Below are positions 15,879-56,825 of a stretch of 64,000 nt of DNA, piece by piece (position 1 is the first letter of the stretch; each line of letters opens with the position of its first letter). Origin of the DNA: Bacillota bacterium (GTDB lineage Bacteria > Bacillota_I > Bacilli_A > ML615J-28 > CAG-313); NCBI GenBank assembly GCA_963648435.1, contig CAVJDT010000003.1, forward strand, positions 14,582 through 78,581. Direction: 5' to 3'. The notes below the pieces were generated by a model. It was not told the DNA's origin, searched no databases, and was given only the letters and a program-made list of their open reading frames with translations. The position numbers and the translations under genes were made by a program.

Positions 15879-18800
15879 TTATGCTGCTTGTTCTTCTTTA
15901 GAAACTGCGGCAGCTTTTTCTTTTTCAGCAGCTTTTTGTTTAGCTAGTTTTTCTTTTTCAAGAGCTTTTTGTTTAGCTAACTTTTCTTTTTCTTTTTCAG
16001 CAGCTTTTTGTTTAGCTAGTTTTTCTTTTTCAAGAGCTTTTTGTTTAGCTAACTTTTCTTTTTCTTTTTCAGCAGCTTTTTGTTTAGCTAGTTTTTCTTT
16101 TTCAAGAGCTTTTTGTTTAGCTAACTTTTCTTTTTCTTTTTCAGCAGCTTTTTGTTTAGCTAGTTTTTCTTTTTCAAGAGCTTTTTGTTTAGCTAACTTT
16201 TCTTTTTCTTTTTCAGCAGCTTTTTGTTTTGCAAGTTTTTCTTTTTCAAGAGCTAACGCGGCATCTTTACGAGCTTTTTCTTCAGCTGCGGCTTGTAATT
16301 TAGCTTCTTTTTCAGCTTGAGCTGCTGCCATTTCAGCTTGTTTACGAGCTTTTTCTTCTTCAACTGCTTTTTGTTTTTCAGCTTTAATTGCATCTTTTTC
16401 AGCTTGTTTACGAGCTTTTTCTTCTTCAATTAATCTTTGCTTTTCAGCATCTAATTCTTCATAGTATGCAATTGAATTCTTAATAATGTTCTTAACTAGT
16501 TTTTCATCTAATTCGCCTTTATTAACTAATCTAAACCATTGTTCGCCCTTAGGACTAGTAGCTTTAACAATTGTTCCAGGATATTCAACAATTAGAGGGA
16601 AAGCTTTTTCTTGATTACTACAGAAAGTAATACGATAATCATTATTAGTTGACATAGTAATTAAGAATAATCTCTTACCAAAGAAATATCTACTAATGTT
16701 GCCTTTTGCATTTGGAACAACTTTAATTTCTTTATTAGGAATAGTTGATGCATATTTAACAACTTTTTCATATGAAGGTTTAAATACTTTTTTCTTCTTT
16801 AATTTTTCACGAGCTTCTTTTTCTTTTTCTTTAGCTATTCTTTCAGCTTCTCTTTCAGCTTCAGCTTTTCTAAGTGAATCAAGTTCTTCTAATTCTTTAG
16901 CAACTCTTGCATCTTCTGCTGCTTTTGCTTCTTCTGCCACTTTTGCTTCTTCTGCCGCTTTTGCTTCTTCTGCTAGTCTTGCTTCTTCTGCCGCTTTTGC
17001 AATTTCAGCTTGTCTTGCTTCTTCAGCTAGTCTTGCTTCTTCTGCCGCTTTTGCTTCTTCTTCAAGTCTTGCAAGTTCAGCTTGATGGGCAGCTTCTACT
17101 GCTTTTGCTTCTTCTTCAAGTCTTGCAAGTTCAGCCGCATGATCAGCACGACGTTTTTCCTCAGCTTCTCTTAATGTTGCAAGTTCTTCTTTTTCAGCTT
17201 GACGTTCAGCTTCTACTACTTTTGCCTCTTCTTCAAGTCTTGCTACTTCTGCTTGATGAGTTTCTTCAGTAGTTTTTGCAACTTCTTCAAGTCTTGCTAC
17301 TTCTGCTTGATGAGCTTCTTTTTCAGCCTTTGCAACTTCTTCAAGTCTTGCAATTTCAGCTTGATGAGTTTCTTCAGTAGTTTTTGCAACTTCTTCAAGT
17401 CTTGCTACTTCTGCTTGATGAGCTTCTTTTTCAGCCTTTGCAACTTCTTCAAGTCTTGCAATTTCAGCTTGATGAGTTTCTTCAGTAGTTTTTGCAACTT
17501 CTTCAAGTCTTGCTACTTCTGCTTGATGAGCTTCTTTTTCAGCCTTTGCAACTTCTTCAAGTCTTGCAATTTCAGCTTGATGAGTTTCTTCAGTAGTTTT
17601 TGCAACTTCTTCAAGTCTTGCTACTTCTGCTTGATGATTAGCTTCTGCAGCTTTAGCTTCTTCAAATAGTCTTGTTACTTCTGCTTGATGATTAGCTTCT
17701 GCAGCTTTTGCTTCTTCAGATAGTCTTGCACATTCTGCTTGATGAGCTTCTTTTTCAGCTTTAGCTTCTTCAGATAATCTTGCTACTTCTGCTTGATGAT
17801 TAGCTTCTGCAGCTTTTGCTTCTTCCTCAAGTCTTGCGCATTCTGCTTGATGAACTTCTTTTTCAGTTTTAGCTTCTTCAGATAGTCTTGCAAGTTCAAC
17901 TTCATAAGCTTTTTTAGCTTCACGTAATTTTTCAAGTTCAATGTGTTCTGCAATACGCTCAGCTTCTGCTCTTCTTAAAGCATCAAGTTCAGCACGGTCT
18001 GCACGACGTTCAGCTTCAGAAGTTCTTAAATATTCAAGTTCAGCATGTTCAACGCGATGTTTTTCTTCAGCTTTTCTTAAAGCATCAAGTTCAGCTTTAC
18101 TTTCTGGGCTCATTACTTCAACTACTTTTTCAATTACTTCAGGAACATATTCAGCTTTTTCTTTTGCAAAAGCAATTTTTTCCGCATTCAATGTTGCTTT
18201 TTCATTTTCAAGTGTATTTCTTTCTTCAGTAACTTTATTTTGTTCACTAACATATTCTAATTGCATTTGAGCAAGTAAAACTTGTAAATGAGCTAATTTA
18301 TCTTGTAGTGCAACTACTCTAGCATCTAATACCGGAGGTTTTTCTTGTTCTTCAGCGATACTCTTCTTTAATTCTTCGATTTCTATTTCAAGTGCTGTTT
18401 TCATGCTTTCAATCACCTCAATTTCATGTCTTAAAGTTTCTAATTCATCGTTTTCTAAACCACATAATCCTAATTGGTCTCTTGTATAAGTAAATAATTG
18501 TTCAAGAATATGTTGTTCAGCTTTATCATATTCTTTCTTATGAGCTTCAATAAAATCTTTAATTAAACGTGTTCTTGATTCAACTGAATATTCAGGATTT
18601 AATTTATATAATTTAACCATTGATAATACATGTAAACCAGTAATTAAACCACCAAATACAATTGGAATAATCAAGAAAAATACCGATGAATTAAAGGTTG
18701 TGCTTCCTTTAACTAAAGCAACATATTTATTTCCCATATCATTCATATAGAATAATAATCCTATGAATACGAGTGCAACAACTGTATCAATTAGCATCAT

Positions 18801-19214
18801 TTCATTTTTACTAAATGTTACCACAAACTTATATAATTGATGAGATACAACTACAATACTAACAAATAATAATGAGCAAACCATCACATTAATAATCCAA
18901 TGGGTTGTCGTATAAGGATCAGTTGATCTCACAAGCATCATTAAACCATCAAATAACAACGCAGCCATTGTAGTAAAAATCGGCATATAACAAGCTACTG
19001 TTGTATAACGTAATGATGGACGATAATTACGATATTTAGTTGATAAATTTATTAAAAATAAAACTAATGAAATAATTGGTAAAACTATTGCTTTTAAAAT
19101 TATTTCAACACGAGGTACTCCACTTAATCCCCAAGGAATGCAAATTGCAAAAGCAATAGCAACGGAAATCATACTATTTATAAACATTACTTTCTTTTCT
19201 CTACTATTTAACAT
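15879..19214 (-). CDS. large membrane-anchored coiled-coil repeat protein (N-terminal polytopic domain, two tandem-repeat arrays, central globular domain)
   Basis: Residues 1-300 form ~8 TM helices. Residues ~440-740 are 18-aa ARLEEVAK(T/A)..HQAE(V/I) repeats. Residues ~770-880 are a non-repetitive domain (..ISRYFFGKRLFLITMSTNNDYRITFCSNQ..). Residues ~990-1100 are 24-aa EKEKEKLAKQKALEKEKLAKQKAA repeats. Confidence 0.6.
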   Translation of the reverse strand: MLNSREKKVMFINSMISVAIAFAICIPWGLSGVPRVEIILKAIVLPIISLVLFLINLSTKYRNYRPSLRYTTVACYMPIFTTMAALLFDGLMMLVRSTDPYTTTHWIINVMVCSLLFVSIVVVSHQLYKFVVTFSKNEMMLIDTVVALVFIGLLFYMNDMGNKYVALVKGSTTFNSSVFFLIIPIVFGGLITGLHVLSMVKLYKLNPEYSVESRTRLIKDFIEAHKKEYDKAEQHILEQLFTYTRDQLGLCGLENDELETLRHEIEVIESMKTALEIEIEELKKSIAEEQEKPPVLDARVVALQDKLAHLQVLLAQMQLEYVSEQNKVTEERNTLENEKATLNAEKIAFAKEKAEYVPEVIEKVVEVMSPESKAELDALRKAEEKHRVEHAELEYLRTSEAERRADRAELDALRRAEAERIAEHIELEKLREAKKAYEVELARLSEEAKTEKEVHQAECARLEEEAKAAEANHQAEVARLSEEAKAEKEAHQAECARLSEEAKAAEANHQAEVTRLFEEAKAAEANHQAEVARLEEVAKTTEETHQAEIARLEEVAKAEKEAHQAEVARLEEVAKTTEETHQAEIARLEEVAKAEKEAHQAEVARLEEVAKTTEETHQAEIARLEEVAKAEKEAHQAEVARLEEVAKTTEETHQAEVARLEEEAKVVEAERQAEKEELATLREAEEKRRADHAAELARLEEEAKAVEAAHQAELARLEEEAKAAEEARLAEEARQAEIAKAAEEARLAEEAKAAEEAKVAEEAKAAEDARVAKELEELDSLRKAEAEREAERIAKEKEKEAREKLKKKKVFKPSYEKVVKYASTIPNKEIKVVPNAKGNISRYFFGKRLFLITMSTNNDYRITFCSNQEKAFPLIVEYPGTIVKATSPKGEQWFRLVNKGELDEKLVKNIIKNSIAYYEELDAEKQRLIEEEKARKQAEKDAIKAEKQKAVEEEKARKQAEMAAAQAEKEAKLQAAAEEKARKDAALALEKEKLAKQKAAEKEKEKLAKQKALEKEKLAKQKAAEKEKEKLAKQKALEKEKLAKQKAAEKEKEKLAKQKALEKEKLAKQKAAEKEKEKLAKQKALEKEKLAKQKAAEKEKAAAVSKEEQAA
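15935..16230. repeat. about four tandem copies of a 72-bp intragenic repeat (encodes the C-terminal EKEKLAKQKA array)
   Basis: Unit AGCAGCTTTTTGTTTAGCTAGTTTTTCTTTTTCAAGAGCTTTTTGTTTAGCTAACTTTTCTTTTTCTTTTTC repeats near-perfectly. Confidence 0.85.
16990..17900. repeat. intragenic tandem array of 54/108-bp units (encodes the ARLEE..HQAE coiled-coil repeats)
   Basis: TTCTTCAAGTCTTGC(T/A)A(C/T)TTC(T/A)GCTTGATGAG(C/T)TTCTT..TTTGCAAC repeats ~3.5 times with near-perfect identity between ~17280 and 17640. More degenerate copies flank it. Confidence 0.8.
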
Positions 19215-33792: not shown

Positions 33793-33866
33793 GCCCCTTT
33801 AGTTCAATGGTAGAATATATCAATGGTAATGATAAGATGCTAGTTCAATTCTGGCATGGGGCACCA
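33793..33866 (+). tRNA. tRNA-Thr(GGU) candidate, 74 nt with encoded CCA
   Basis: Cloverleaf folds: acceptor GCCCCTT/ATGGGGC (one T-T mismatch); D-arm GTTC-AATGGTA-GAAT; anticodon arm TATCA-AT GGT AA-TGATA; 4-nt variable loop; T-arm GCTAG-TTCAATT-CTGGC; then ACCA. A TATAAT box lies ~12 nt upstream. Confidence 0.6.
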
Positions 33867-33888
33867 TTTTGAAAATAGGAGGGATATT

Positions 33889-35127
33889 ATGAAACCCTTA
33901 GCATATACAATGCGACCTGAAAGTTATGAACACATTGTCGGTCAAGATCATTTAGTTGGTGAGACAGGCATCCTTACTAAAATGATAAAGACGAAAAGTC
34001 TTTTTTCTTTTATCCTCTATGGTAATCCCGGATGTGGAAAAACAACTATAGCTGAGGCAACTTGTAAAATGAGTGGATTTAAATGGTTTCGTTTTAATGC
34101 ATCTACAGATAATAAAGACACTTTAAGACAAATAATTACGGAATCCCGCTTTTACAGTGATTCAATTATCATCATCGATGAAATCCATCGAATGAAAAAA
34201 GATATCCAAGATTATCTACTACCATATGTGGAAAATGGAACCATTATTATGATTGGTCTTACTACCGTTAATCCCTATCACGCAGTTAACCCCGCTATTA
34301 GATCACGCTCCCACATTTACAAATTAAATGATTTAACTAGTGCTGATTTACGAAAAGTACTAGACCGTGCTTATTCATTAATCGGTGAAGGTTATGAAAT
34401 TGATAGTGATGTTTATGATTATTTAATAAATATGGCCAACCTTGAAATTAGAACTCTAATTAATAGTTTTGAAACACTCATTAAAACATCATCAACTAAA
34501 CATATAACATTAAATGATGCCATTAACACCATCCAAAAAGCAAACGTTAGTATGGATGCAAATGGTGATAGTTACTATGATACTTTAAGTGGCCTTCACA
34601 AATCAATTAGAGGTAGTGATGTCGATGCGGCCCTACACTATTTATCTAGACTAATTGTTGCGGATGACCTTCAAAGTTTATGTAGGCGACTTCTTTGCAT
34701 AGCCTATGAAGATATTGGACTTGCTAACCCTACAATTGGGCCACGCGTTGTTGCGGCATGTCAAGCCGCAAGAGAACTTGGAAATCCTGAAGCAAGACTT
34801 CCACTTTCCGTAATTGTTATTGAAATGGCCTTATCGCCAAAATCTAACAGTGCGATGCTTGCGGTAGATAAAGCTTTACAAGATGTTAATGATGGAAAAA
34901 GTGGCAGTATTCCTCTTCACCTTAAAAATACTTACTCTTTTAATCCGGCCCAAACTCCTTATAAGTATCCCCATGACTACCCTAATGCTTGGGTATATCA
35001 ACAATATTTGCCAGATGTTTTAAAAGATGCAAAATACTATACCCCAAAACCTAGTTCCAAAATTGAAGTTGGACTTATGGAGCGATATAATCAAATTGAA
35101 GAAATGAAAAAGAAATATCAAAAGTGA
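33889..35127 (+). CDS. rarA: recombination factor RarA/MgsA (AAA+ ATPase)
   Basis: ILYGNPGCGKTTIAEA Walker A. The start was moved to MKPLAYTMRP (AGGAGGGA RBS) because the track start lies inside the tRNA. Confidence 0.9.
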   Translation: MKPLAYTMRPESYEHIVGQDHLVGETGILTKMIKTKSLFSFILYGNPGCGKTTIAEATCKMSGFKWFRFNASTDNKDTLRQIITESRFYSDSIIIIDEIHRMKKDIQDYLLPYVENGTIIMIGLTTVNPYHAVNPAIRSRSHIYKLNDLTSADLRKVLDRAYSLIGEGYEIDSDVYDYLINMANLEIRTLINSFETLIKTSSTKHITLNDAINTIQKANVSMDANGDSYYDTLSGLHKSIRGSDVDAALHYLSRLIVADDLQSLCRRLLCIAYEDIGLANPTIGPRVVAACQAARELGNPEARLPLSVIVIEMALSPKSNSAMLAVDKALQDVNDGKSGSIPLHLKNTYSFNPAQTPYKYPHDYPNAWVYQQYLPDVLKDAKYYTPKPSSKIEVGLMERYNQIEEMKKKYQK

Positions 35128-35150
35128 AAGCCAAAACTTTCACTTTTTTA
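35125..35150. terminator. bidirectional rho-independent terminator
   Basis: AGTGAAAG-ccaaaa-CTTTCACTTTTTTAA overlapping the rarA stop. Confidence 0.65.
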
Positions 35151-36813
35151 ATTTATCTAGTTCTTCTTTTGTAAGCATTAATAAACTTATTCGGATTAAT
35201 AAATCCCGATATTTTAAAAATCCTTCAATTTTATTATTAATACTCATCATCATATGGTGATTAACATAACTACATGCACTATTAAAATTATTGCCTAAAA
35301 AAATGCGATAAGCAAAATTTTTCATTAAACTATCTAAATTAATTTCACTAGTAACCCCACCAATAAATTTATATCCAATATTACCACCCGTAATTAATAA
35401 ATATTCTAATATTTGATTATATTCAAAATTATCAATTATTTTTTCAATTCCGTTTATATAAACAATCGTCTTTTTCAATTTTTCAGGACTATGCTTATTG
35501 TATTCATCAATATTATTAGTATTATTATTGTTTAATATTTCTAGTTTTTCATCCATTTTAGCTTTAACTTTTTTCAAAAAATCCAAAGTAGTACTAGACT
35601 CAATTCCTAAATTTTCAAATAAACCTAAATTATTATTTAAATCAAGCAAATAAATTTCATACTCATTAATGTTTTTTTGAAATTTGGGATAAAAAAGCAG
35701 TGATATCAAATAATTACGATATACACTACCATCATTTGATACAATTAATAAATTTTCATCACATCTAACATATTCATTTCGGTCATCTTTTCCAATCACT
35801 ATTTCCAAGTTATCAGATGATGAATGCATTAAAGCTTCTTTCATCCTTAATGAATTACCAACTAAATTATTTACTTCAATTACAATTAAATCATGATTCT
35901 TATCATATCTTATTAAAAAAGGTTCATTCAAGATTTTACAAAGTGATATTTTAAATACTTCATAATTAACTTGTTGATAAGTTTTTATAAAAATAACACT
36001 AATATGATTACAAATAATATAACTTATATCTTGATAAAAAATACTTAAATGACTTAATTCTTTTTTTATATTCATTATGTAGGCTAACATTATTTTATTT
36101 TCTTTAGTAGTATCTATAATCTCATTGCTAAGTTTTCTTAAAGATAGTGGTTTAGTAGCTTTATCTTTAATTATATAATCATCATTAAACTGTTTCAATT
36201 TACTACCTACTTTTCGTGAGTATTTAAAGGCTCTTCCAAAACATTTCTTTAAACCGTTTTTCACCATTTTAAAAAACTCAAATACAGTTTTTTTACAAAT
36301 AAAAACAATGCCAACAAAAATCACCACCACACAAAATATAATAGTACCAACTTTAGAAAACAATAAAAAGAGAAGATAAAAAAGAATACAACCAACTAGA
36401 CCTCCCCCAATCATCATATCATTACGTCCATTTTTGAAATAATCAAAATATAAAAGAATTGTATTTTTAAAACTATTTCCTTCATATTTACTTACAAAAT
36501 TATGCATGGCAAAATGACTTAAAGTAATTATTGCAAGTACAACCATGACAATTCCTAAATATCTAATGTTTTTTATCGTAAAACGATGATGCACAAACAG
36601 AAAATAAATACCTAAAGCACCTAATAATAGTAAAAAAATAAAATACCAATCTCCAAAAAATAAACGAAATGTTAACATTCCATATTTTCCAACAATTCCT
36701 AGTCTTGCAATTGAAATTAAAGAAAATAATAAACAAACAATTCCTGCAACTTCATAAACAAAAATAAATTGTTTGGTCTTTTGTTCATATTCTGATAACT
36801 TTTCTTTTGCCAT
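35140..36813 (-). CDS. FtsK/SpoIIIE-like membrane protein with degenerate Walker A/B (putative pseudo-ATPase)
   Basis: N-terminal ~220 aa have 5-6 TM. The C-terminal domain aligns to the SpoIIIE motor: IVIGKDDRNEYVRCDENLLIVSNDGSVYRN versus IALGKDISGE..PHLLVAGATGSGKS. The Walker B region reads TIVYINGIEKI in place of the hhhhDE motif. The aligned domain is ~330 aa. Confidence 0.5.
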   Translation of the reverse strand: MAKEKLSEYEQKTKQFIFVYEVAGIVCLLFSLISIARLGIVGKYGMLTFRLFFGDWYFIFLLLLGALGIYFLFVHHRFTIKNIRYLGIVMVVLAIITLSHFAMHNFVSKYEGNSFKNTILLYFDYFKNGRNDMMIGGGLVGCILFYLLFLLFSKVGTIIFCVVVIFVGIVFICKKTVFEFFKMVKNGLKKCFGRAFKYSRKVGSKLKQFNDDYIIKDKATKPLSLRKLSNEIIDTTKENKIMLAYIMNIKKELSHLSIFYQDISYIICNHISVIFIKTYQQVNYEVFKISLCKILNEPFLIRYDKNHDLIVIEVNNLVGNSLRMKEALMHSSSDNLEIVIGKDDRNEYVRCDENLLIVSNDGSVYRNYLISLLFYPKFQKNINEYEIYLLDLNNNLGLFENLGIESSTTLDFLKKVKAKMDEKLEILNNNNTNNIDEYNKHSPEKLKKTIVYINGIEKIIDNFEYNQILEYLLITGGNIGYKFIGGVTSEINLDSLMKNFAYRIFLGNNFNSACSYVNHHMMMSINNKIEGFLKYRDLLIRISLLMLTKEELDKLKK

Positions 36814-36910
36814 AATATCACCTACATAATATTAAACACTATTTAAAGTGAAAAATTTGTAAAAAAAAGACAAAGCGAAAAAAAATCCATCAATGATGGA
36901 TTTCAATTTA

Positions 36911-37066
36911 CTACTTTTTATTCTTTTCCTTATGAATAGTAGCTTTTTTACAACGTGGGCAATATTTCTTTTGTTCTAAACGATCTGGAGTGTTTCGTTT
37001 ATTTTTTTGAGTAAGGTAATTTTCTTCGCCACATTCTGTACATTTTAATAAAACATTAATACGCAT
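36911..37066 (-). CDS. rpmG: 50S ribosomal protein L33
   Basis: Hand translation gives [51 protein letters not shown] (51 aa), which has the L33 zinc-ribbon signature. TAGGAGGTAA RBS. Absent from the ORF track because it is under 60 aa. Confidence 0.85.
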
Positions 37067-37197: not shown

Positions 37198-37548
37198 TTA
37201 GACTAATACATTGCCATTTTTAATGCCTATTGAAAGGAATAAATAAACAATTCCAACAAATGCCCATACAATTGACATTGTTAAAGCCATTTTACCACAA
37301 ACTTTACTGCGATTTGACCATTTATCTTGCCATAATATGTATAGTACAAATCCTACGGGAGGAAGTACAAAACTGATTAGTTTCCAGATAAAAAGGGGGA
37401 CAGGATCATCAATAATTGTTGTGTTACTTGAAACAACTACTTCACCTTCTTGTTTTTTAACGTGAAATTCAAATCCACATTGTTCGCATTTTTCAGCATC
37501 AATTTTTTGTTCTTTCATACATTTAGGGCATACTTTAGTTTTTTCCAT
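37198..37548 (-). CDS. small membrane protein with an N-terminal zinc ribbon
   Basis: CPKCMKEQKIDAEKCEQCGF followed by two TM helices; function unknown. Confidence 0.5.
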   Translation of the reverse strand: MEKTKVCPKCMKEQKIDAEKCEQCGFEFHVKKQEGEVVVSSNTTIIDDPVPLFIWKLISFVLPPVGFVLYILWQDKWSNRSKVCGKMALTMSIVWAFVGIVYLFLSIGIKNGNVLV

Positions 37549-43719: not shown

Positions 43720-44397
43720 CTATTCTTTAGATATTCGTTCTAATACTTTAATATGTTCAAAATTATTTAATAATTGAAAACGGTCAAAAGAAAAACGTAA
43801 GAGTTTAGTATGGCATGGAATCTGTAAATTTTTATTTTTTTCATAATATAAATAAATAATTTCACTATCATCATATACATTTTTTAAAGGCTTTGATGAA
43901 TTAATTAAATATACTTTATTATTATCATAAATAACTAAATCAACAAGTTCCTTTGTCTTTTCTTTTTGAATTACTCCTCGTAAAAATATTTCAATATTAC
44001 TATATTCATCTTTAAGCATGTAATAGCAACATACTGCCATCCATAAATTCTTTTTTTCCAAAATTTCTTTGGTTTTAAGGGTGTGAAAATGAACTATTAT
44101 ATATTCACGCTTATAAAGAATTCGTTTTAATAAGTTATTCTTTAAATAAGCTTTTAATATCTCAAATAAGATTTTTACTTGTGATAATTCTAAGTTCAAT
44201 AAATTGATAATCATTGTCGTATCTTTAAAGTATGTTACTTCCTTATTACCAATTATTTTATTAATAAACTCATACCATTTGAAGGGATAAGTAGTCCCTA
44301 ACTCATATGTTTTTTTAATAAATTGTTCTTCAATCATTGAATAATCATAATAATTAATATTAAAAGATTGACTTATTAAATAGTTCATTATCATCAC
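43720..44397 (-). CDS. hypothetical protein
   Basis: 225-aa ORF leading the phoH-ybeY-cdd-era block; no recognisable motif. Confidence 0.4.
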   Translation of the reverse strand: MMIMNYLISQSFNINYYDYSMIEEQFIKKTYELGTTYPFKWYEFINKIIGNKEVTYFKDTTMIINLLNLELSQVKILFEILKAYLKNNLLKRILYKREYIIVHFHTLKTKEILEKKNLWMAVCCYYMLKDEYSNIEIFLRGVIQKEKTKELVDLVIYDNNKVYLINSSKPLKNVYDDSEIIYLYYEKNKNLQIPCHTKLLRFSFDRFQLLNNFEHIKVLERISKE

Positions 44398-44444: not shown

Positions 44445-46130
44445 TTAATTTTTACCTTTAAGGTTGTTAATTTCAATGGGAACAAAAACAATTAAAGGTT
44501 TATGTTTAGTCATTCGAAAGATTAATCTCGTAATCTCATCAGTGATTTTCTTTTCTGCTTCTTCTAAAGAATAATTTCTACGCCATAATGAGTTTTCAAA
44601 AATACTTTTTGAAAGGTCACAAACTTTTTTAGTTAATTCCACATCTTCCATTTTTCCAACAATTCCTTTAGATATTACATTAGTTTTTTTAACGACCTTT
44701 CTTTGTCTAATATCATAATACATTGTTATAATTAAAGCTCCATCAGTTGATAGGGTTTCACGGTCTTTTATTACTTCTTCATTGACATCACCAATTAAAG
44801 AACCATCCACAAAAACATCACCAACTTTGACCTTACTACGCTCAACTGGTTTACCATCTTTAAAGTTTAAAATTTCCCCATTATCCGTTAAAAGAACTTT
44901 ACTGCGTTCATATCCAAAATCAAGAGCCACTAACAATTGTTCATACATATGACGGTACTCACCTTTAATCGGAATAATATATTTTGGTTTCAAAACACTA
45001 TACATTAATTTTAAATCATCACCAGTTGCATGAGATGGTCTTAAGATGGTACGATCATATACTGTTAAATCCATATCATAACGGTATAAAGTGTTAATTG
45101 CATTAGTTGCTAATTTTTCTGTTCCAGAAACAGGTGGACACATAACAATTATATGGTCCTTAGGAGTAAGATGAATATATTTATCTTCACCTAAAACCAT
45201 CTTTATAAGCATTGAATAAGCTTCTTCTCTTTTTCCATGAACAATTACAACTAAATTATCACTATCATTATCATTTGTTTCTGAATAAGGCTTTAAAGTT
45301 ACTAAATTTTGTTCAGGTACCTTTAAATAATTATTAAGGATTGCGGTTTCAACAAATTTAACTCCTTTATAACCGACAAATGCAATTTTACGATTTTCAA
45401 CAATTGATAAATTAATAATCTTTTGTATCCGTATTAAATCAGTTGAATAAGCAGCCACAATGATTCGACCTTTATTATGGGTCAAAATATTATTAAAATT
45501 ATGTTCTAACATCACATCGTTGTTAACTCTTCCAATCGCAGTCGTACCCACACTTTCACTCATAAGTGCTAATACTTTTCCTTTACCAAGATCAGAAATT
45601 TTACTGAAACTTGTAGTATAATGTTCATCGCTTGTAGGAGCAAAATTAAAGTCCGTAGCATAAATAATGGTACCATCTAGAGTGTGAATTGCCACTCCTA
45701 TTGATTCAGGAAGACTATGAGTAGTATTGAAAAACTCTACTTTAGTTCCTTTAAAGTTTAAAACTTTATTTTCATTAATTCGGTATAAGCGAAATTGCTT
45801 AATATCCATTTTATTATCTGTTAATAAAGTTTCAATTAAACTAATCGTAAAGTGGGTACCATACACATTAATAGGTAAATTTCTTAATAAATAAGGAATT
45901 GCCCCAATATTATCTTCATGACCATGTGATACAAATATCCCCGCAATCTTATTTTTTCTTTTCATCAAATAACTAATATCAGGTATCACCGCGTCAACCC
46001 CATACATGTCAATATCTGGATACCTTAATCCCGCATCTAAAATAAAAATGCATTCATCATTTTCTACAATATAAAGATTTTTACCATCTTCACCAAGTCC
46101 GCCTAAAGCCATTATCTTTAAATTTGCCAT
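44445..46130 (-). CDS. rnj: ribonuclease J (metallo-beta-lactamase/beta-CASP)
   Basis: MANLKIMALGGLGE.. and a beta-CASP domain. Motif II reads HGHEDN instead of the usual HGHEDH. Confidence 0.85.
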   Translation of the reverse strand: MANLKIMALGGLGEDGKNLYIVENDECIFILDAGLRYPDIDMYGVDAVIPDISYLMKRKNKIAGIFVSHGHEDNIGAIPYLLRNLPINVYGTHFTISLIETLLTDNKMDIKQFRLYRINENKVLNFKGTKVEFFNTTHSLPESIGVAIHTLDGTIIYATDFNFAPTSDEHYTTSFSKISDLGKGKVLALMSESVGTTAIGRVNNDVMLEHNFNNILTHNKGRIIVAAYSTDLIRIQKIINLSIVENRKIAFVGYKGVKFVETAILNNYLKVPEQNLVTLKPYSETNDNDSDNLVVIVHGKREEAYSMLIKMVLGEDKYIHLTPKDHIIVMCPPVSGTEKLATNAINTLYRYDMDLTVYDRTILRPSHATGDDLKLMYSVLKPKYIIPIKGEYRHMYEQLLVALDFGYERSKVLLTDNGEILNFKDGKPVERSKVKVGDVFVDGSLIGDVNEEVIKDRETLSTDGALIITMYYDIRQRKVVKKTNVISKGIVGKMEDVELTKKVCDLSKSIFENSLWRRNYSLEEAEKKITDEITRLIFRMTKHKPLIVFVPIEINNLKGKN

Positions 46131-46278: not shown

Positions 46279-47679
46279 CTAGTGTTTAGTTTTTTCTTTA
46301 TGTTTATAAGGAATTCTAAATAGTTGTTTAAACAAATCTTTAACATTAAAGGGAATAAAGGGATAAAGATAAGGCCGATTAAAACTTTTAAGACAGGCAA
46401 GATAGATAATAAGTAAAATGGTTCCACCAATAAAACCAGGTAATTTAAAAAAATATACACATAATAATAAAAATATATTAGCCATCTTATTAGCTAACGA
46501 TAACTCATAACTAGGTGTTATGTAAGACCCTATCGCCGAAATAGCCGCTAAAATAACAATTTGTTCTGTAAATAATCCCACCTTTATCGCAACATCACCA
46601 ATAATTAGGCCTGAAACCAGTCCCATTGATGTAGATAGAGCATTGGGGGTATGAATTGAAGCCATTCTAATTAATTCAATTCCAATTAAAACCGTAATCA
46701 GTTGTAAAAAAAGAATATTATGATTATGATTACTTGGAATGAATAACTGTAAGTTAGGTAAATTATAATCAGTTAAAGCATACCATAAAGGGATACAAAA
46801 GAAAGCCATAACAATTCCCAATATTCTAATTAACCTTAAATACGACCCCGCAACAACTGTTTGTCTAAATTCTTCGGCATGTTGTAAATGATCAAAAACA
46901 CTAACCGGGCCTAAAATAGCACTTGGTGAGGTATCAACAATCAAGCCAAACATTCCTTGATATAAATGAATAGCAAGCGTATCTGGTCTTTCTGTATATT
47001 TTACTAAAGGATAGGGACTATACCGATGATTAACTAATAATTCTTCAAGGGCTTTATCACTCATTGTTAATTCTTTAACTTTTATATTATCAAGTTTTTC
47101 CATAATTGTTTTTAAAATATTAGGTTTAATAACATCTTTTAAATAAACTAAAGCAACCTTAGTTTTACTAATTGTTCCAATTTCCCAAATTTTCATTCCG
47201 AGTTTACCTGTTTTAATTCTTCTTCTAATTAATCCAATATTGGTGGCAAAATTCTCAGTAAATCCGTCTCTACTTCCTCTTACTACTTTTTCACCATCTG
47301 GTTCACTAATTGAGCGAGATGGATATTGTTTAGTTTCACTGATAAACATTAAGTTTTTACTACACGTTACCACTAAATCGCCATTAAACACCGCATCACT
47401 TGCCATATTTAAATCAGTGGTAAATTCCAAATTTAAAGAAGTAAGATTATTAGCTATTACCTCTTTGATATTATTTTGATTAATTTGATCTTTTATTTTT
47501 ATAAAGCTTGTCATTAATCTTGAAATAGCAAGACTATTTGCGAGAAACGAATCATAATAAAAAGTAAAAGTTAAATTATTACCATTAGTTATTGTTCTTT
47601 TAGTAATATCAAAGGTTATATTTAGTCCTAATATTTCATCTAGAGTTTGATTGTTTGGTTCTTTATTCATTTTAGCCAC
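46279..47679 (-). CDS. spoVAF: stage V sporulation protein AF (GerA-family germination protein paralog)
   Basis: GerA-family core GSRDGFTENFATNIGLIRRRI..PYPL and C-terminal TM helices; last gene of the spoVA cluster. Confidence 0.75.
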   Translation of the reverse strand: MAKMNKEPNNQTLDEILGLNITFDITKRTITNGNNLTFTFYYDSFLANSLAISRLMTSFIKIKDQINQNNIKEVIANNLTSLNLEFTTDLNMASDAVFNGDLVVTCSKNLMFISETKQYPSRSISEPDGEKVVRGSRDGFTENFATNIGLIRRRIKTGKLGMKIWEIGTISKTKVALVYLKDVIKPNILKTIMEKLDNIKVKELTMSDKALEELLVNHRYSPYPLVKYTERPDTLAIHLYQGMFGLIVDTSPSAILGPVSVFDHLQHAEEFRQTVVAGSYLRLIRILGIVMAFFCIPLWYALTDYNLPNLQLFIPSNHNHNILFLQLITVLIGIELIRMASIHTPNALSTSMGLVSGLIIGDVAIKVGLFTEQIVILAAISAIGSYITPSYELSLANKMANIFLLLCVYFFKLPGFIGGTILLIIYLACLKSFNRPYLYPFIPFNVKDLFKQLFRIPYKHKEKTKH

Positions 47680-48022
47680 GCGGTTTAAAAATTAAAGCAA
47701 CAATAAATGATGAAAAAATGGCGGTGGAAATACCACTAGATGTTATATCAAAAATACCAGTAAAAAGTCCCATTATGCCGCTTTCTTCAGCTGCTTTTAG
47801 GGCCGCATGCGTTAAGGAATGTCCAAAAGATGAAATGGGGACAAGAGCTCCCCCACCAGCTACTTTAATTAATTTATCATATAGACCAAAACATTCTAAA
47901 AATGAACCAAGCATAACGTATATAACTGTTAAATGAATAGGAAGTAATTTAGCTAAATCCATGATTAACTGAGCAATCATACAAATTAATCCACACACTA
48001 AAAATGCTAGTAAAAACTTCAT
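47672..48022 (-). CDS. spoVAEb: stage V sporulation protein AEb
   Basis: 116 aa, multi-TM; sits between spoVAD and spoVAF as in Bacillus. Confidence 0.75.
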   Translation of the reverse strand: MKFLLAFLVCGLICMIAQLIMDLAKLLPIHLTVIYVMLGSFLECFGLYDKLIKVAGGGALVPISSFGHSLTHAALKAAEESGIMGLFTGIFDITSSGISTAIFSSFIVALIFKPRG

Positions 48023-49030
48023 TTAATCCCACCTTTCTAAACATATTGCATGACTAATGCAAGGAATAGTATCTTTTTGCGCAACCATTACTGGGTTTAA
48101 TAAAGCACCAGTTGCGAGAATTAATACCTTTTTATATGTTCCTTTTTTTAATTCTTCAACAATATAACTGAGTAGATAAGCCGTTATACAGCCACATCCA
48201 CTCCCCCCCGCAAACACTTTTTGCTTTTTAATATTATACAAATTTTTCCCCGCATCTTTATGCTTATCTTTTAATAAAATTCCATTTTCCTTGCAACATT
48301 TAATAAATAATTCACTACCATAAATTGATAAATCACCAGTAACAATAACATCATAATCATCAACAGTTTCATTAAAATTACTTAAATGATCAAAAAGTGT
48401 TTCAGCAGCACTTGGAGCCATTATGCGTCCCATATCTTGAGCATCTTTTTGATTTACATCAATAATCTTACCAATAGTTCCGGATTTTACACAAATACGT
48501 GTAGGTGTACTTCCTAATAAACATATCCCCGCCGCGGTAGTAGTGAAAGTCATAGAAGTAGGCTTTTGTCCCCCATATTCTGTTGGATAACGAAATTGTC
48601 TTTCACTAGTCGCATTATGACTAGAACTTGCAACTAAAACCTTCGCATTTTTGATACTATCAACATAAATACTTCCTAAAATCATATTTTCTGTAATTGT
48701 TGAACATGCGGCAAAAGTCCCCAAAAAAGGAATAAAAGTATTACGCATTGCATAAGTACTAGCCACAATTTGATTATTTAAATCTCCCGAAAACATAACA
48801 TCAATATCATTTGGACATAATTTTTCTTTTTGACAAATTATTTCAAAAGCTTTTTTAACTAGTGCAATTTCAGCTTTTTCCCAAGTTTTTTCATTACAAT
48901 AATTGTTATCATAACTATAATCAAAATAATTACCATAAGGACCATTTTTTTCTTTTGGCCCTGTCACGACTGCGGTATTTTCAACAAAAACACTATCAAA
49001 ACTTAAACTATTTCGACCAACTTTTTTCAT
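48023..49030 (-). CDS. spoVAD: stage V sporulation protein AD (thiolase-like fold, DPA uptake)
   Basis: 335 aa; condensing-enzyme-like fold (..GGSGCGC..), matching SpoVAD length and synteny. Confidence 0.8.
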   Translation of the reverse strand: MKKVGRNSLSFDSVFVENTAVVTGPKEKNGPYGNYFDYSYDNNYCNEKTWEKAEIALVKKAFEIICQKEKLCPNDIDVMFSGDLNNQIVASTYAMRNTFIPFLGTFAACSTITENMILGSIYVDSIKNAKVLVASSSHNATSERQFRYPTEYGGQKPTSMTFTTTAAGICLLGSTPTRICVKSGTIGKIIDVNQKDAQDMGRIMAPSAAETLFDHLSNFNETVDDYDVIVTGDLSIYGSELFIKCCKENGILLKDKHKDAGKNLYNIKKQKVFAGGSGCGCITAYLLSYIVEELKKGTYKKVLILATGALLNPVMVAQKDTIPCISHAICLERWD

Positions 49031-49031
49031 A

Positions 49032-49484
49032 CTATCTAATTAAATAAATAATGGTGGCACTAATAAATGAACTAACAACTCCCGCAACAATTACCGTCCC
49101 TGCTAATTTAAACATATTACTCATAATACCAAGAACGACCCCTTCACTTTTCCCTTCTAAAGCAGCTGAAGTCATTGAATTTGCAAAACCAGTAATTGGA
49201 ATAAAAGTTCCCGCCCCCGCAAGTTGTCCAATTTTATCAAATACCCCAATTCCTGTTAAAATGGAAGTTATAACAACAATACTCATTGACATCAACCCAT
49301 TTGCCATTAATTCTTCAATTTTAAACACCATAACATATAAAGTTATCAGTCCTTCTGCGATAATTCCAATCACTCCTCCGATTAAAAACGCAAATAGCAA
49401 ATTTTTTATAATTGGTCTTTTTACAGGTTTTTCTTTAATAATTGATTGATATTTTTGTAATCTCTTATTTTCCATATTAATCAC
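49032..49484 (-). CDS. spoVAC: stage V sporulation protein AC
   Basis: 150 aa, 4 TM; KNLLFAFLIGGVIGIIAEGL typical of SpoVAC. Confidence 0.8.
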   Translation of the reverse strand: MINMENKRLQKYQSIIKEKPVKRPIIKNLLFAFLIGGVIGIIAEGLITLYVMVFKIEELMANGLMSMSIVVITSILTGIGVFDKIGQLAGAGTFIPITGFANSMTSAALEGKSEGVVLGIMSNMFKLAGTVIVAGVVSSFISATIIYLIR

Positions 49485-54166: not shown

Positions 54167-54712
54167 TTATTTAGTAATCGCAATTTTTTCACGCATTTCT
54201 TTAAGCATTCTACTAACTTTGCTTTGACTTATGGAAAGTTCCTTTGCTATTTCAACTTGACTATACCTGTTTTCTAAACGAAGTTTTAATAGTTCTTTTT
54301 CCATAGCTGTAAAATTAAACGCATCTAAATTTAAATAATTTCCCTCTATATCATTCATATCTTCTTTTAGTTCTACTTGATAATATTCTTTCGCAACTAA
54401 ACTATCAGTTTGATCAATTGTTTTTTCTTTTGATGAAGTTAAATTTTTATAGTATTTACTAGTTTTAATTAAACTGCGTTTCTCAAGTTCATCTTTGATA
54501 GCCCCAATAATATAGTAAGTAGCATAAGTTGAAAACTTCGCTCCTTTCGTAACATCATACTTTTTCGCCGCGTTAAATAGTCCCATCATTCCAGCTTGTA
54601 CTAAATCATCATAATCAAATGGACTTACCTTAAAACGCCTAGCGATTTTATAAACTAAACGTTGATTAGATTCAACTAAAAACTCATATTGACTAGTATT
54701 CACCTTGTTCAT
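54167..54712 (-). CDS. sigF: compact sporulation-type sigma factor (regions 2 and 4 only) in the sigF position
   Basis: Region 2 (DLVQAGMMGLFNAAKKYD..FSTYATYYIIGAIKDEL) and a region 4 HTH (SQVEIAKELSISQSKVSRM) are present. At 181 aa it is far shorter than the 255-aa B. subtilis SigF. It follows spoIIAA-spoIIAB and dacF. Confidence 0.55.
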   Translation of the reverse strand: MNKVNTSQYEFLVESNQRLVYKIARRFKVSPFDYDDLVQAGMMGLFNAAKKYDVTKGAKFSTYATYYIIGAIKDELEKRSLIKTSKYYKNLTSSKEKTIDQTDSLVAKEYYQVELKEDMNDIEGNYLNLDAFNFTAMEKELLKLRLENRYSQVEIAKELSISQSKVSRMLKEMREKIAITK

Positions 54713-55127
54713 GATATTTTTTTACCATTAATACCTTAGTGCCCTCATTAACACGTGATGTAACATCTAGTTTATCAGTGAATACTTCCATTATTGTAAA
54801 GCCAAGGCCTGCCCTTTCTTCATCTATTTTTGTACTAAATAATGGTTCTTTTGCTTTTTCAATATCTTTTATGCCAATTCCATAGTCAACTACTTCAATA
54901 TAAATATTTTCTAAATCAAAGCGAAGATTTAATTCTACTTTTTTTGAACTATCATTCAAATATCCGTGAACAATCGCATTAGTTACAGCTTCTGATACAA
55001 TTGTTTTAATTTCATTAACTGTGCTAATTGGTAAATTTAATTCAACCAAAAAAGCCGTGGTAATGGTTCTAGCAAGTAAAACATTTTCATTACGTGCTAA
55101 AAAGCTTGTTTTTAATTCATTATACAT
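54693..55127 (-). CDS. spoIIAB: anti-sigma F factor (serine kinase, HATPase_c)
   Basis: ..SEAVTNAIVHGY..GLGF; 145 aa after the start is moved to MYNELKT, which overlaps the spoIIAA stop by 1 nt. Confidence 0.8.
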   Translation of the reverse strand: MYNELKTSFLARNENVLLARTITTAFLVELNLPISTVNEIKTIVSEAVTNAIVHGYLNDSSKKVELNLRFDLENIYIEVVDYGIGIKDIEKAKEPLFSTKIDEERAGLGFTIMEVFTDKLDVTSRVNEGTKVLMVKKYHEQGEY

Positions 55128-55477
55128 TATGCTACCTCCAAATAATTTTCCGCTTCTTGTTCGTTTGAAGCAATTATACAAATTTTTTTAAGGCCTGACA
55201 AAGCCACAATCCTACTTATTATTTCATTCATTGAACAAATTACAATTTTTCCATTTCTTTTTCTAATTTGTGAAAATCGACCAATAATAAACCCAATTCC
55301 ACTACTATCCATAAAAGTTACTTTCTCAAAATTGATAATTAAATGTTTAATCATATATTTATCGATAATTTCACTTACCCGAATCTTTAAATTTTCGGTT
55401 ACTGATTGATCAAGTTCACCATTTAGTCTAATGAATAAGCGATTTTTTCTAATTGCCATTTGCATATTTAATGCCAT
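55127..55477 (-). CDS. spoIIAA: anti-sigma F factor antagonist (STAS domain)
   Basis: 116 aa; phosphorylatable Ser in DSSGIGFIIGR. Confidence 0.8.
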   Translation of the reverse strand: MALNMQMAIRKNRLFIRLNGELDQSVTENLKIRVSEIIDKYMIKHLIINFEKVTFMDSSGIGFIIGRFSQIRKRNGKIVICSMNEIISRIVALSGLKKICIIASNEQEAENYLEVA

Positions 55478-55655
55478 TTTTACACCCCCTTAAATATTGT
55501 ACCAAACAATATACCAAGATTCAATAACAATTATTTAATCTATTATTTTATGACATAATTCGAACCATCATACTTTGTCAAATAACATAAAAAATAAAAA
55601 AACAAACCAACTTTATCAATTAGTTTGTTACATTTAACTTAAAATTAAAATAAAA

Positions 55656-56825
55656 TCAAAAAATTTGTTTAATTATTAACCTTAAGACATTAATAAAGGA
55701 ATTTTTCTTTGGCTTTTTTTCTAGTTCTAATGGTACTTCACCTATTAATTTATCATCAACATATACTTTCAATTTACCAATGTTATATTGATTTAAATTA
55801 TTAATTTTTTCAATATCATATTCAATTTCAATTCTTGGATTATTTAGTTTAGTATTTTTCTTTATAACTTTAACAACACTATTACTTGTAATAATATTAT
55901 AAGTTGAAGGGTCAAGTAATATATTCTTATCCTTTTTTACTTCTGTATTTTTAGGAACAATAACCATTTTCTCATATGTTGCAAACCCATAATTTAAAAG
56001 TGCTAAAGTATCTTCACTACGGTGAGGCACCGTATCAACATTCATCACTACTGAAATTAAACGCATACCGTCTTTTTTCTTGGTACAAGTCAAACAGTAA
56101 CCTGCACTTTCGGTCCATCCAGTCTTTAAACCATCAACTCCTTCGGCATGTTTAATGAGTTTATTGGTATTAACAAGCCAAAAAGGTTTATCAGTATCTT
56201 CTCTTACATAATCTTCATATTTACTAGTATATGGAATAATTTCATCTTCATATTTAATTAATAGATTACGAGCAATCATGGCCATATCATAACTTGAACT
56301 ATAATGATTATTTGTAGGAAGACCGGTAACATTACTAAAATGGGTATTTTTAAGTCCTAATTTTTTTACTTCATCATTCATTTGAGCCACAAAAAACTCT
56401 TCACTTCCACTTATTCCTTCCGAAAGAGATGTTGCGGCATCGTTTGCAGATGCAATAACCATGGCTTTAAATAAGTCTTCAACCTTCATTTTTTCGCCAA
56501 CTTCTAAAAATATCTGGGTACCACCTTTACTTTTGGCATTTTCACTAGTTGATAACATTTGATTTTTTTCAATTCTTTTAGAAGCTATGGCATCTAACAC
56601 TAGTTTCATAGTCATTATTTTAGTCATACTAGCTGGTTCATATCTTTCATGAGCATTATATTCATATAAAACCGTACCTGTTTCTACTTCTACTAAAATA
56701 GCACTTTTGGCATATTTAACAAGTTCTTCATCTGCTTTTATATGTTTTATATTTTTTATAAATAATAAGCCAACAACAACTAATCCAAATATCATATTTT
56801 TAATAATAAATTTTATTTTTCTCAT
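55656..56825 (-). CDS. dacF: D-alanyl-D-alanine carboxypeptidase (S11 family), sporulation-associated
   Basis: Signal peptide; SMTK (SxxK), SAN and KTG boxes. Located immediately upstream of spoIIAA, as Bacillus dacF is. Confidence 0.8.
   Translation of the reverse strand: MRKIKFIIKNMIFGLVVVGLLFIKNIKHIKADEELVKYAKSAILVEVETGTVLYEYNAHERYEPASMTKIMTMKLVLDAIASKRIEKNQMLSTSENAKSKGGTQIFLEVGEKMKVEDLFKAMVIASANDAATSLSEGISGSEEFFVAQMNDEVKKLGLKNTHFSNVTGLPTNNHYSSSYDMAMIARNLLIKYEDEIIPYTSKYEDYVREDTDKPFWLVNTNKLIKHAEGVDGLKTGWTESAGYCLTCTKKKDGMRLISVVMNVDTVPHRSEDTLALLNYGFATYEKMVIVPKNTEVKKDKNILLDPSTYNIITSNSVVKVIKKNTKLNNPRIEIEYDIEKINNLNQYNIGKLKVYVDDKLIGEVPLELEKKPKKNSFINVLRLIIKQIF

Follow-up and report, generated by a model that had tools for sequence, protein, structure and literature searches.

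We analysed a stretch of 64,000 nucleotides (hereafter the window) from a Bacillota bacterium of the GTDB lineage Bacilli_A; ML615J-28; CAG-313 (GenBank assembly GCA_963648435.1, contig CAVJDT010000003.1, positions 14,582 to 78,581 of the forward strand). It contains a gene for a 557-aa membrane protein that is, very probably, a pseudo-ATPase derived from FtsK/SpoIIIE. An initial annotation, made from the letters alone, had placed an FtsK/SpoIIIE-like protein with two degenerate Walker motifs at positions 35140-36813. These coordinates are exact, the strand is minus, and both peptides quoted at the time are found in the translation: IVIGKDDRNEYVRCDENLLIVSNDGSVYRN (residues 338-367) and TIVYINGIEKI (residues 449-459). 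The gene and its parts are arranged as follows:

35140..36813, minus strand: coding sequence, stop codon included, of the 557-aa FtsK/SpoIIIE homologue, gamma-less and predicted to be catalytically dead (open reading frame list, hhalign, AlphaFold2 [AF2] and Foldseek)
36274..36813, minus strand: N-terminal FtsK-type membrane anchor, residues 1-180, four long helices (sub-threshold Pfam FtsK_4TM, hhalign, AF2, conservation)
36064..36273, minus strand: variable cytoplasmic linker, residues 181-250 (lowest conservation)
35809..36063, minus strand: equivalent of the FtsK alpha domain, residues 251-335 (hhalign and Foldseek alignments)
35143..35808, minus strand: remnant of the RecA-like beta domain (pseudo-ATPase), residues 336-557 (hhalign, Foldseek, motif alignments)
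35776..35793, minus strand: family-specific motif G-K-D-D-R-N, residues 341-346 (family alignment; G341 invariant, N346 in 97%)
35716..35739, minus strand: former Walker A, SNDGSVYR, residues 359-366, against GTTGSGKS (alignments with true-FtsK controls)
35437..35469, minus strand: former Walker B, TIVYINGIEKI, residues 449-459 (alignments with true-FtsK controls)

The AF2 model of the protein has a mean predicted local distance difference test (pLDDT) of 86, with low values in residues 190-220 of the linker. Four long membrane helices are predicted and align colinearly with the four-transmembrane (4TM) domain of FtsK. Hence, the polytopic anchor is kept, as had been proposed. Residues 251-335 are predicted to fold as beta-beta-alpha-beta-beta, and the protein ends at the point where the gamma domain would start.

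Searched as a single sequence, the protein gives no match at E<=10 to the Pfam models PF01580 and PF17854. Pfam yields only a sub-threshold match to FtsK_4TM (PF13491, E=0.0075, 16.4 bits against a cut-off of 23.1 bits), a domain present in the precomputed annotation of other members of its family (P0027, P0030, P0033). NCBIfam gives a weak EssC match (TIGR03928, E=1.3e-4, 19.7 bits against a cut-off of 778 bits), and phmmer against the sequences of the PDB gives nothing relevant. The initial annotation had named the lack of a significant FtsK-family profile match as a result that would count against it. Plain Pfam does give this result for PF01580; it took profile and structure methods to overturn it. 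With a word-indexed search we found 42 full-length relatives (clusters at 90% identity) of 545-615 aa and 25-100% identity, almost all of them unnamed, with two genuine FtsKs among the weak matches. A profile made from the alignment of 38 relatives (A1) matches a genuine FtsK (P0043) in hhalign with 99% probability and E=2.3e-18, which bears out the claimed colinearity with the FtsK/SpoIIIE motor. The two are colinear over 551 columns, which start at the first residue of the 4TM anchor and extend to residue 641 of the 747 of this FtsK, i.e. to the end of its beta domain. The gamma domain (PF09397), which reads the FtsK orienting polar sequences and SpoIIIE recognition sequences (KOPS/SRS) and activates XerD, is absent from the window protein and from every member of the clade examined. 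Identity between the motors of the family and of genuine FtsKs is only about 13-25%.

The structure prediction that had been suggested as a check agrees, since the AF2 model resembles solved FtsK motors. When it is compared with the PDB by Foldseek, the best 11 matches are all FtsK alpha-beta motors (6t8g, 2iut, 2ius, 6t8b and 6t8o among the structures matched), with E between about 1e-13 and 1e-14, target TM-scores of 0.62-0.72 and some 390 columns. TcpA and the EssC/EccC modules rank after them, TcpA being a secondary match only. Comparison of the sequence profile with solved structures gives a different order: the beta domain is closest to EssC D2-D3 (4lya, E=1.5e-6), and EssC 5fv0, YukB 9qks and TcpA also come ahead of E. 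coli FtsK (E=3.7e-3). This suggests shared degeneracy rather than membership in a type VII secretion system (T7SS), because the protein resembles FtsK in its full-length architecture, its anchor, its alpha domain and its gene neighbourhood, and there are no secretion or conjugation genes nearby. The homology of the window protein to FtsK is far beyond chance.

The positions that matter for catalysis and DNA contact have been defined in Pseudomonas aeruginosa FtsK (PaFtsK), where R620 is the arginine finger and R632, K643, K657 and R661 contact DNA (PMC7321959). We mapped PaFtsK positions onto the family through P0043, with four genuine FtsKs as controls inside the alignment, all of which show the expected residues:

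Walker A: PaFtsK K472 and S473 correspond to window Y365 and R366
Walker B: PaFtsK D595 and E596 correspond to window N454 and G455
Arginine finger, acting in trans: PaFtsK R620 corresponds to window G477, in a column that is variable within the family
TQRP motif and loop II: PaFtsK Q631 and R632 correspond to window T488 and S489
Loop II: PaFtsK K643 corresponds to window M497
Loop I: PaFtsK R661 corresponds to window C514

The degeneracy of both Walker motifs thus withstands realignment with controls that have K, S, D, E and R in the expected columns. The motor is also shorter than a functional one, as first described: it has no gamma domain, and alpha and beta together measure about 308 aa, where a functional motor has about 352 aa. 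The positions that do survive are structural ones in common with FtsK, namely G341, D391 ('DPK'), Y438-N439 ('GYN'), G480, E530 ('GD') and R541 ('PIR'). Because Walker A and B, the arginine finger, the basic residues of the pore loops and the gamma domain are gone, the window protein is almost certainly unable to hydrolyse ATP or to pump DNA. It is also predicted, from the same alignments, to be unable to hold DNA in a central pore the way FtsK does.

This protein is not alone. The family profile, run by hmmsearch exhaustively against 1.84 billion cluster representatives, matched 106 proteins at E<1e-30, of which about 80 are gamma-less members of the family (representatives at 50% identity). 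Most are full-length, with 530-630 aa, and genuine FtsKs of 720-950 aa come directly beneath them in the ranking. GxxGxGK[ST], TQRP and the Walker B Asp-Glu are absent at the aligned positions from all 64 full-length family representatives, and these motifs were not found intact in any of 27 genome loci either. All the matches longer than 680 aa have an intact Walker A and all but one of them also have hhhDE and TQRP. Two proteins seemed to blur this division. P0259, at first sight a 560-aa protein whose Walker A is intact, turned out to be a genuine FtsK in truncated form, and P0400, taken for a close intact relative, proved to be an ordinary FtsK.

Selection has preserved the family. Full-length open reading frames are kept down to about 23% identity. 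Ratios of nonsynonymous to synonymous substitutions (dN/dS, Nei-Gojobori) between the window gene and its relatives are 0.07-0.14 overall, 0.03-0.07 in the anchor and 0.09-0.13 in the beta domain; another pair of the family has 0.05 overall and 0.03 in the beta domain. The anchor is the best conserved region, with a mean frequency of the top residue of 0.68 against 0.48 in the beta domain. It includes invariant residues that are not found in genuine FtsKs, i.e. D55-W56-Y57 ('FGDWYF'), H75, R84, H104, Y122 and K127, and also the FtsK-like G136-G137-G138. The family is thus conserved and not the wreck of a pseudogene. It has the fold of its parent, has lost the catalytic residues and is under purifying selection, which are the three marks of a pseudo-ATPase.

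The more distant members show how this state might have been reached. A deviant P-loop, G-x-x-x-S-G-[IV]-[KR]-[TS], with a hydrophobic residue at the position of the lysine and the basic residue shifted by one, is present in 23 of the 64 full-length representatives. The same proteins have retained the 'GD' motif of FtsK, and an arginine adjoining the R632 position is invariant among them; PF01580 is detected in their precomputed annotation. They do not have the Walker B Asp-Glu, and the Asp is most often replaced by Asn. The subfamily of the window has its own signatures (FGDWYF, G-K/I-DDRN, IDEYN, ING.E and EGF...R) and has lost the deviant P-loop too. Since the distant members retain this P-loop and one pore-loop arginine, the sequences indicate that degeneration is stepwise, from intact FtsK to a deviant P-loop and then to none.

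The window subfamily is found in 27 metagenome-assembled genomes (MAGs; species representatives) with very diverse labels: 'uncultured Mollicutes bacterium' (UMGS75, 89% identical), 'Bacilli bacterium', 'Anaeroplasma', 'Acholeplasmataceae', 'Staphylococcaceae' and 'Bacillales bacterium UBA1427'. For more distant members the labels are Anaeroplasmataceae, Acholeplasmatales or Tenericutes. The carriers are uncultured gut Bacilli, and none of the family matches came from a cultured organism. This distribution agrees with the monophyletic group of Mycoplasmatales-related Bacilli orders (RF39, RFN20, ML615J-28, Acholeplasmatales and Erysipelotrichales) predicted to mix walled sporulators with wall-less non-sporulators (PMC10868615). 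That work does not discuss ftsK/spoIIIE, and its supplement has no entry for K03466, spoIIIE or ftsK. The 'Mollicutes' label of the nearest public record is misleading, since the window organism is a walled and probably spore-forming member of the Bacilli. All family members are annotated as 'hypothetical protein' except one (P0357, locus L013, Tenericutes bacterium ADurb.Bin140), which is called 'DNA translocase SpoIIIE'. The name is probably wrong given the lost motor residues. It could mislead surveys of uncultured Bacilli MAGs or inflate their counts of sporulation genes.

The family gene occupies a well-defined chromosomal slot. Its closest conserved neighbours and the signals between them are the following:

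36911..37066, minus strand: rpmG (ribosomal protein L33), the gene next upstream of the family gene at practically every locus (open reading frame, tblastn)
33856..35127, plus strand: rarA/mgsA (AAA+ recombination factor), convergent neighbour (NCBIfam, synteny)
44445..46130, minus strand: RNase J, conserved upstream neighbour (Pfam, synteny)
36882..36904, minus strand: terminator-like hairpin 3' of rpmG (sequence comparison across lineages)
35120..35147, no strand assigned: bidirectional terminator-like hairpin separating the family gene from the convergent rarA

The core order is strongly conserved over the 28 loci compared: RNase J - c7 - L33 - family gene - convergent rarA - response regulator - histidine kinase - HtrA - ABC-F. 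The L33 of one locus (L029), used as tblastn query, matches this position of the window and the family loci. In more basal loci RNase J adjoins the c7-L33-family gene group, and the spoVA genes of basal lineages lie directly upstream of the core block. In the window, a phoH-ybeY-cdd-era-recO-ppi-adh-mscL block is inserted between RNase J and the family gene, such that the minus strand reads, after RNase J: c7, phoH-ybeY-cdd-era-recO, a peptidyl-prolyl isomerase, an Fe-alcohol dehydrogenase, mscL, a zinc-ribbon membrane protein, rpmG and the family gene. Beyond rarA come a two-component system, HtrA, the ABC-F protein and PolC. The hairpin after rpmG keeps its stem through differing sequences in L004 and L005, which points to a real terminator. 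It is followed by a conserved leader of about 45 nt and an AGGTGA ribosome-binding site, so that the family gene has its own site. The best match to a sigma-70-like promoter in the conserved upstream segment is doubtful given its spacing to the ribosome-binding site. The zinc-ribbon protein (116 aa, 37198-37548, minus strand) has two C-terminal transmembrane helices, lies just upstream of rpmG in eight related loci and has weak matches to the TcaA N-terminal ribbon only.

The sporulation programme noted by the initial annotation is encoded in the window itself, by dacF-spoIIAA-spoIIAB-sigF (54167-56825) and by spoVAC-spoVAD-spoVAEb-GerA/SpoVAF (46279-49484). Both clusters are on the minus strand, as are the P-type ATPase and Na/H exchanger genes between them, and their genes are ordered relative to each other as in Bacillus subtilis. 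The window organism makes peptidoglycan. The RNase J upstream of the family gene recalls the spoIIIE locus of B. subtilis, whose order is spoVFA-spoVFB-asd-dapG-dapA-rnjB-tepA-ylzJ-spoIIIE. The analogy RNase J - TepA - SpoIIIE is only partial. The place of tepA/ylzJ is taken by c7 (43720-44397, minus strand), an orphan soluble protein of 225 aa which is not ClpP/TepA-like and which is conserved in 15 loci, with RNase J on one side and L33/family gene on the other. The residues P37, T60, K95, E97, I100 and W118 are invariant in it, and we found no similarity to it in Pfam, NCBIfam or the PDB sequences.

Members with a deviant P-loop have comparable surroundings. P0257 lies in the same slot (dpaA-like gene, RNase J, family gene and convergent rarA, in L039). 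P0391 (L046 7806-11713, ERZ27298558:k141_667114) lies downstream of spoIIGA-sigE-sigG at a distance of 57 nt, has murG-murB-ftsZ beside it and adjoins ponA-recU-mgtE, genes that flank the P0257 locus as well. A dead FtsK homologue thus sits inside a cluster of division and sporulation genes. A 564-aa protein in L039 was considered as EzrA and rejected. L039 and L043 are distant from each other, with RelA 36% identical, which makes a synteny argument between them impossible. The rarA gene is convergent with the family gene in 26 of the 28 loci and is present in the distant L039 too. In E. coli (L047, NC_000913.3 933224-939337) the order is ftsK-lolA-rarA-serS, i.e. rarA lies two genes past ftsK. 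The neighbourhood of FtsK and RarA in two distant phyla may be due to chance or to a functional link between segregation and fork rescue. No T7SS, conjugation or mobile-element genes were found among the annotated neighbours of the family gene.

Elsewhere in the window, an open reading frame of 1111 aa (15879-19214, minus strand) starts with a polytopic membrane region, after which several hundred residues make up near-perfect tandem repeats rich in Glu, Ala and Lys (e.g. EEAKAAEANHQAEVARL and KEKLAKQKAAEKE), a predicted coiled coil. The frame gives no Pfam match and explains the local rise in GC and an AT skew of -0.42.

Is there an intact FtsK in these genomes? We found none in the window and none in 27 other genome loci, covered to about 10 kb around the family gene; in both, tblastn with a genuine FtsK matched only the anchor region of the family gene (E=5e-10 in the window). 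A sister assembly (GCA_963648405.1) extends the view by about 5 kb, with purine and nucleoside genes. Blocks of accession numbers reveal no MAG shared by family members (MBQ8293135, MBQ2891947, MBR2891847) and intact FtsKs (MBR1936300, MBQ9019409, MBQ6323645). In the anchor, intact FtsKs of related lineages (P0043, P0160, P0093 and P0273) share 26-31% identity with the family. In five related lineages they occupy one consistent slot, (L33-efp or ezrA)-ftsK-PNP_UDP-M16-M16. PNP/M16 genes are found in none of the family loci, and RNase J/rarA in none of the loci of intact FtsK. So clean a separation of the two slots suggests that the loci are distinct and the genes therefore paralogous, and that they probably co-exist. 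In related lineages L33 also precedes the intact ftsK, as in L031 (L33-efp-ftsK).

Overall, the best explanation of these results is that the family is a conserved clade of FtsK-derived pseudo-ATPases acting as a membrane scaffold, to which we give a probability of roughly 0.6. The functional part of this reading is tentative taken by itself, with chances slightly under even that the protein would be a non-catalytic scaffold in the membrane, probably at the septum. A scaffold is proposed because the membrane domain is the most conserved part, with invariant polar residues of its own, and because purifying selection still acts on the dead motor. The primary function would reside in the anchor, much as the N-terminal domain of FtsK has a role in division that is independent of the translocase, and the pseudo-motor would act as a module for oligomerisation or for docking of partners. 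Two reports describe such roles: the N-domain of E. coli FtsK is required for division (PMC3870252) and Staphylococcus aureus FtsK regulates a peptidoglycan (cell-wall) hydrolase (PMC10233372). Several points weigh against this explanation. The loss of motifs in the sequence is formally compatible with nucleotide binding, by analogy with some degenerate domains of EssC/EccC. The gene neighbourhood may be plain inherited synteny devoid of functional meaning. The strong conservation of the pseudo-motor could mean an activity more specific than docking. Finally, the division of labour implied by the word scaffold is an assumption.

One might instead see the family gene as the only descendant of FtsK/SpoIIIE in its lineage, one that lost motor and gamma domain and was kept for a role in division or at the membrane. 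Segregation, that of the forespore included, would then proceed without an FtsK-type pump or through an unrelated motor. This would account for the failure to find an intact gene in the window or around the 27 and more other loci. RNase J upstream of the family gene, together with the dpaA-like gene of L039, recalls the order around spoIIIE in B. subtilis, and L33 precedes the family gene just as it precedes intact ftsK in related lineages. Both groups also have recognisably similar N-terminal domains, with MAK-K-K starts, E21, H100, GGG, and FGTWY in one where the other has FGDWY. Moreover, ftsK is wholly missing from some Mollicutes (PMC3139596). Yet, the separate ftsK-PNP_UDP-M16-M16 slot of five related lineages fits two loci better than one. 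FtsK is also nearly universal among walled bacteria, and canonical endospore formation needs a septal DNA pump, in a window that encodes sigF, spoIIAA/AB and spoVA. We thus regard a sole copy as somewhat unlikely. Its extreme form, in which spore-formers with reduced genomes have no intact FtsK-type translocase of any sort and keep a dead FtsK only as a scaffold for the septum or for membrane fission, is improbable.

A second possibility, which we hold to be unlikely, is that the protein works as a regulatory subunit, in mixed rings or paired channels with an intact FtsK/SpoIIIE at the septum, where dead subunits lacking the finger would tune or gate the pump. Purifying selection does retain the alpha/beta fold, and potentially its ring interfaces. 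An anchor of the same type would bring both proteins to the same place, and the neighbourhoods include sporulation and division genes. There is also a precedent in EssC/EccC, whose degenerate modules regulate the active one and are among the PDB matches of the family (4lya, 4nh0, 4n1a). But no intact partner was found at the examined loci of family-bearing genomes, and the low identity of the motors to genuine FtsK makes the conservation of interfaces doubtful. Furthermore, a subunit devoid of finger and P-loop is expected to poison a hexamer that fires sequentially, not to tune it.

It is very unlikely that the degenerate site still binds nucleotide and makes the protein a nucleotide-dependent switch. 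The idea draws on the third of the wider clade that keeps the deviant P-loop, with its basic residue one position later, and on the frequent change of the Walker B Asp to Asn, a conservative replacement typical of mutants that bind but do not hydrolyse. However, the loop of the window subfamily, SNDGSVYR, has no glycine-rich signature, its column is variable among members, and the arginine finger is absent. For this subfamily, mixed rings and residual nucleotide binding are both possible but less likely than the scaffold.

A component of a T7SS (EssC/YukB-like) or a conjugative coupling protein (TcpA/TraB-like), as opposed to a derivative of FtsK, is suggested by the best profile matches among solved structures and by the weak NCBIfam match to EssC. 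This identity is effectively refuted by the colinearity with FtsK over the full length, 4TM anchor and alpha domain included, by the FtsK motors heading the structural matches, by a single motor module with no forkhead-associated (FHA) domains, and by a conserved housekeeping and sporulation locus in 28 genomes with no transfer or secretion genes nearby. The decaying paralogue that the initial annotation allowed for has the loss of every catalytic motif in its favour and can be ruled out, given dN/dS of 0.05-0.14 and low in every domain, intact reading frames of constant length in 42 clusters and about 80 divergent representatives, family-specific invariants and conserved synteny.

How does the family compare with known systems? 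With FtsK/SpoIIIE (PF13491, PF17854, PF01580 and PF09397) it shares the order of domains (4TM anchor, linker, alpha and RecA-like beta), the fold (Foldseek E~1e-14), the GGG of the anchor and a context of division and sporulation genes. It differs by the lack of gamma domain, Walker A and B, arginine finger, TQRP and pore-loop basic residues, by a beta domain some 25-45 aa shorter, and by the invariant polar D55, H75, R84, H104, Y122 and K127 added to the anchor. It also differs from the intact FtsKs of related lineages in its slot, RNase J...L33-gene-rarA as opposed to ftsK-PNP-M16-M16. Having the architecture and not the functional residues, it should be filed as an FtsK-derived pseudo-ATPase and not as a DNA translocase.

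The D2/D3 modules of EssC/EccC/YukB (4lya, 4nh0, 4n1a, 6tv1) are likewise RecA-like domains of the FtsK family with impaired motifs (profile E~1e-6), and serve as regulatory or docking modules. Yet, they share a polypeptide with an active D1, FHA domains and two transmembrane helices, are encoded in T7SS loci, and generally keep a P-loop and bind nucleotide. The family protein has one module, standing alone behind an FtsK-type 4TM anchor, and there are no secretion genes close to its gene. Coupling proteins of the TraB-TcpA type are encoded on plasmids or integrative and conjugative elements, with relaxase and transfer genes, and have active Walker A and B; none of this applies here. The role in division without DNA pumping that we propose resembles those described in the E. 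coli (PMC3870252) and S. aureus (PMC10233372) studies, but those FtsKs also carry an active motor whereas that of the family is dead.

The SftA protein of Bacillus is a second, soluble FtsK paralogue, with an active ATPase and a gamma domain but no membrane anchor. The family is its reverse, being anchored, inactive and gamma-less; the likeness lies in Firmicutes having two FtsK-family proteins with divided labour. We found no description in the searchable literature of a stand-alone, 4TM-anchored, gamma-less and Walker-less clade of FtsK.

FtsK and SpoIIIE have a double role, in which the membrane domain builds or closes the septum and the motor pumps DNA, and the two are hard to separate genetically. 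The graded series of sequences described here documents the turning of a ring ATPase into a pseudoenzyme. If these spore-formers truly lack an intact FtsK, this would challenge the view that endospore formation requires a pump of the SpoIIIE type. More generally, the family is a natural separation-of-function allele, in which motor, finger, DNA-gripping loops and gamma domain have been erased while the anchor is more conserved. This points to a translocase-independent role of FtsK important enough to be retained over long evolutionary times.

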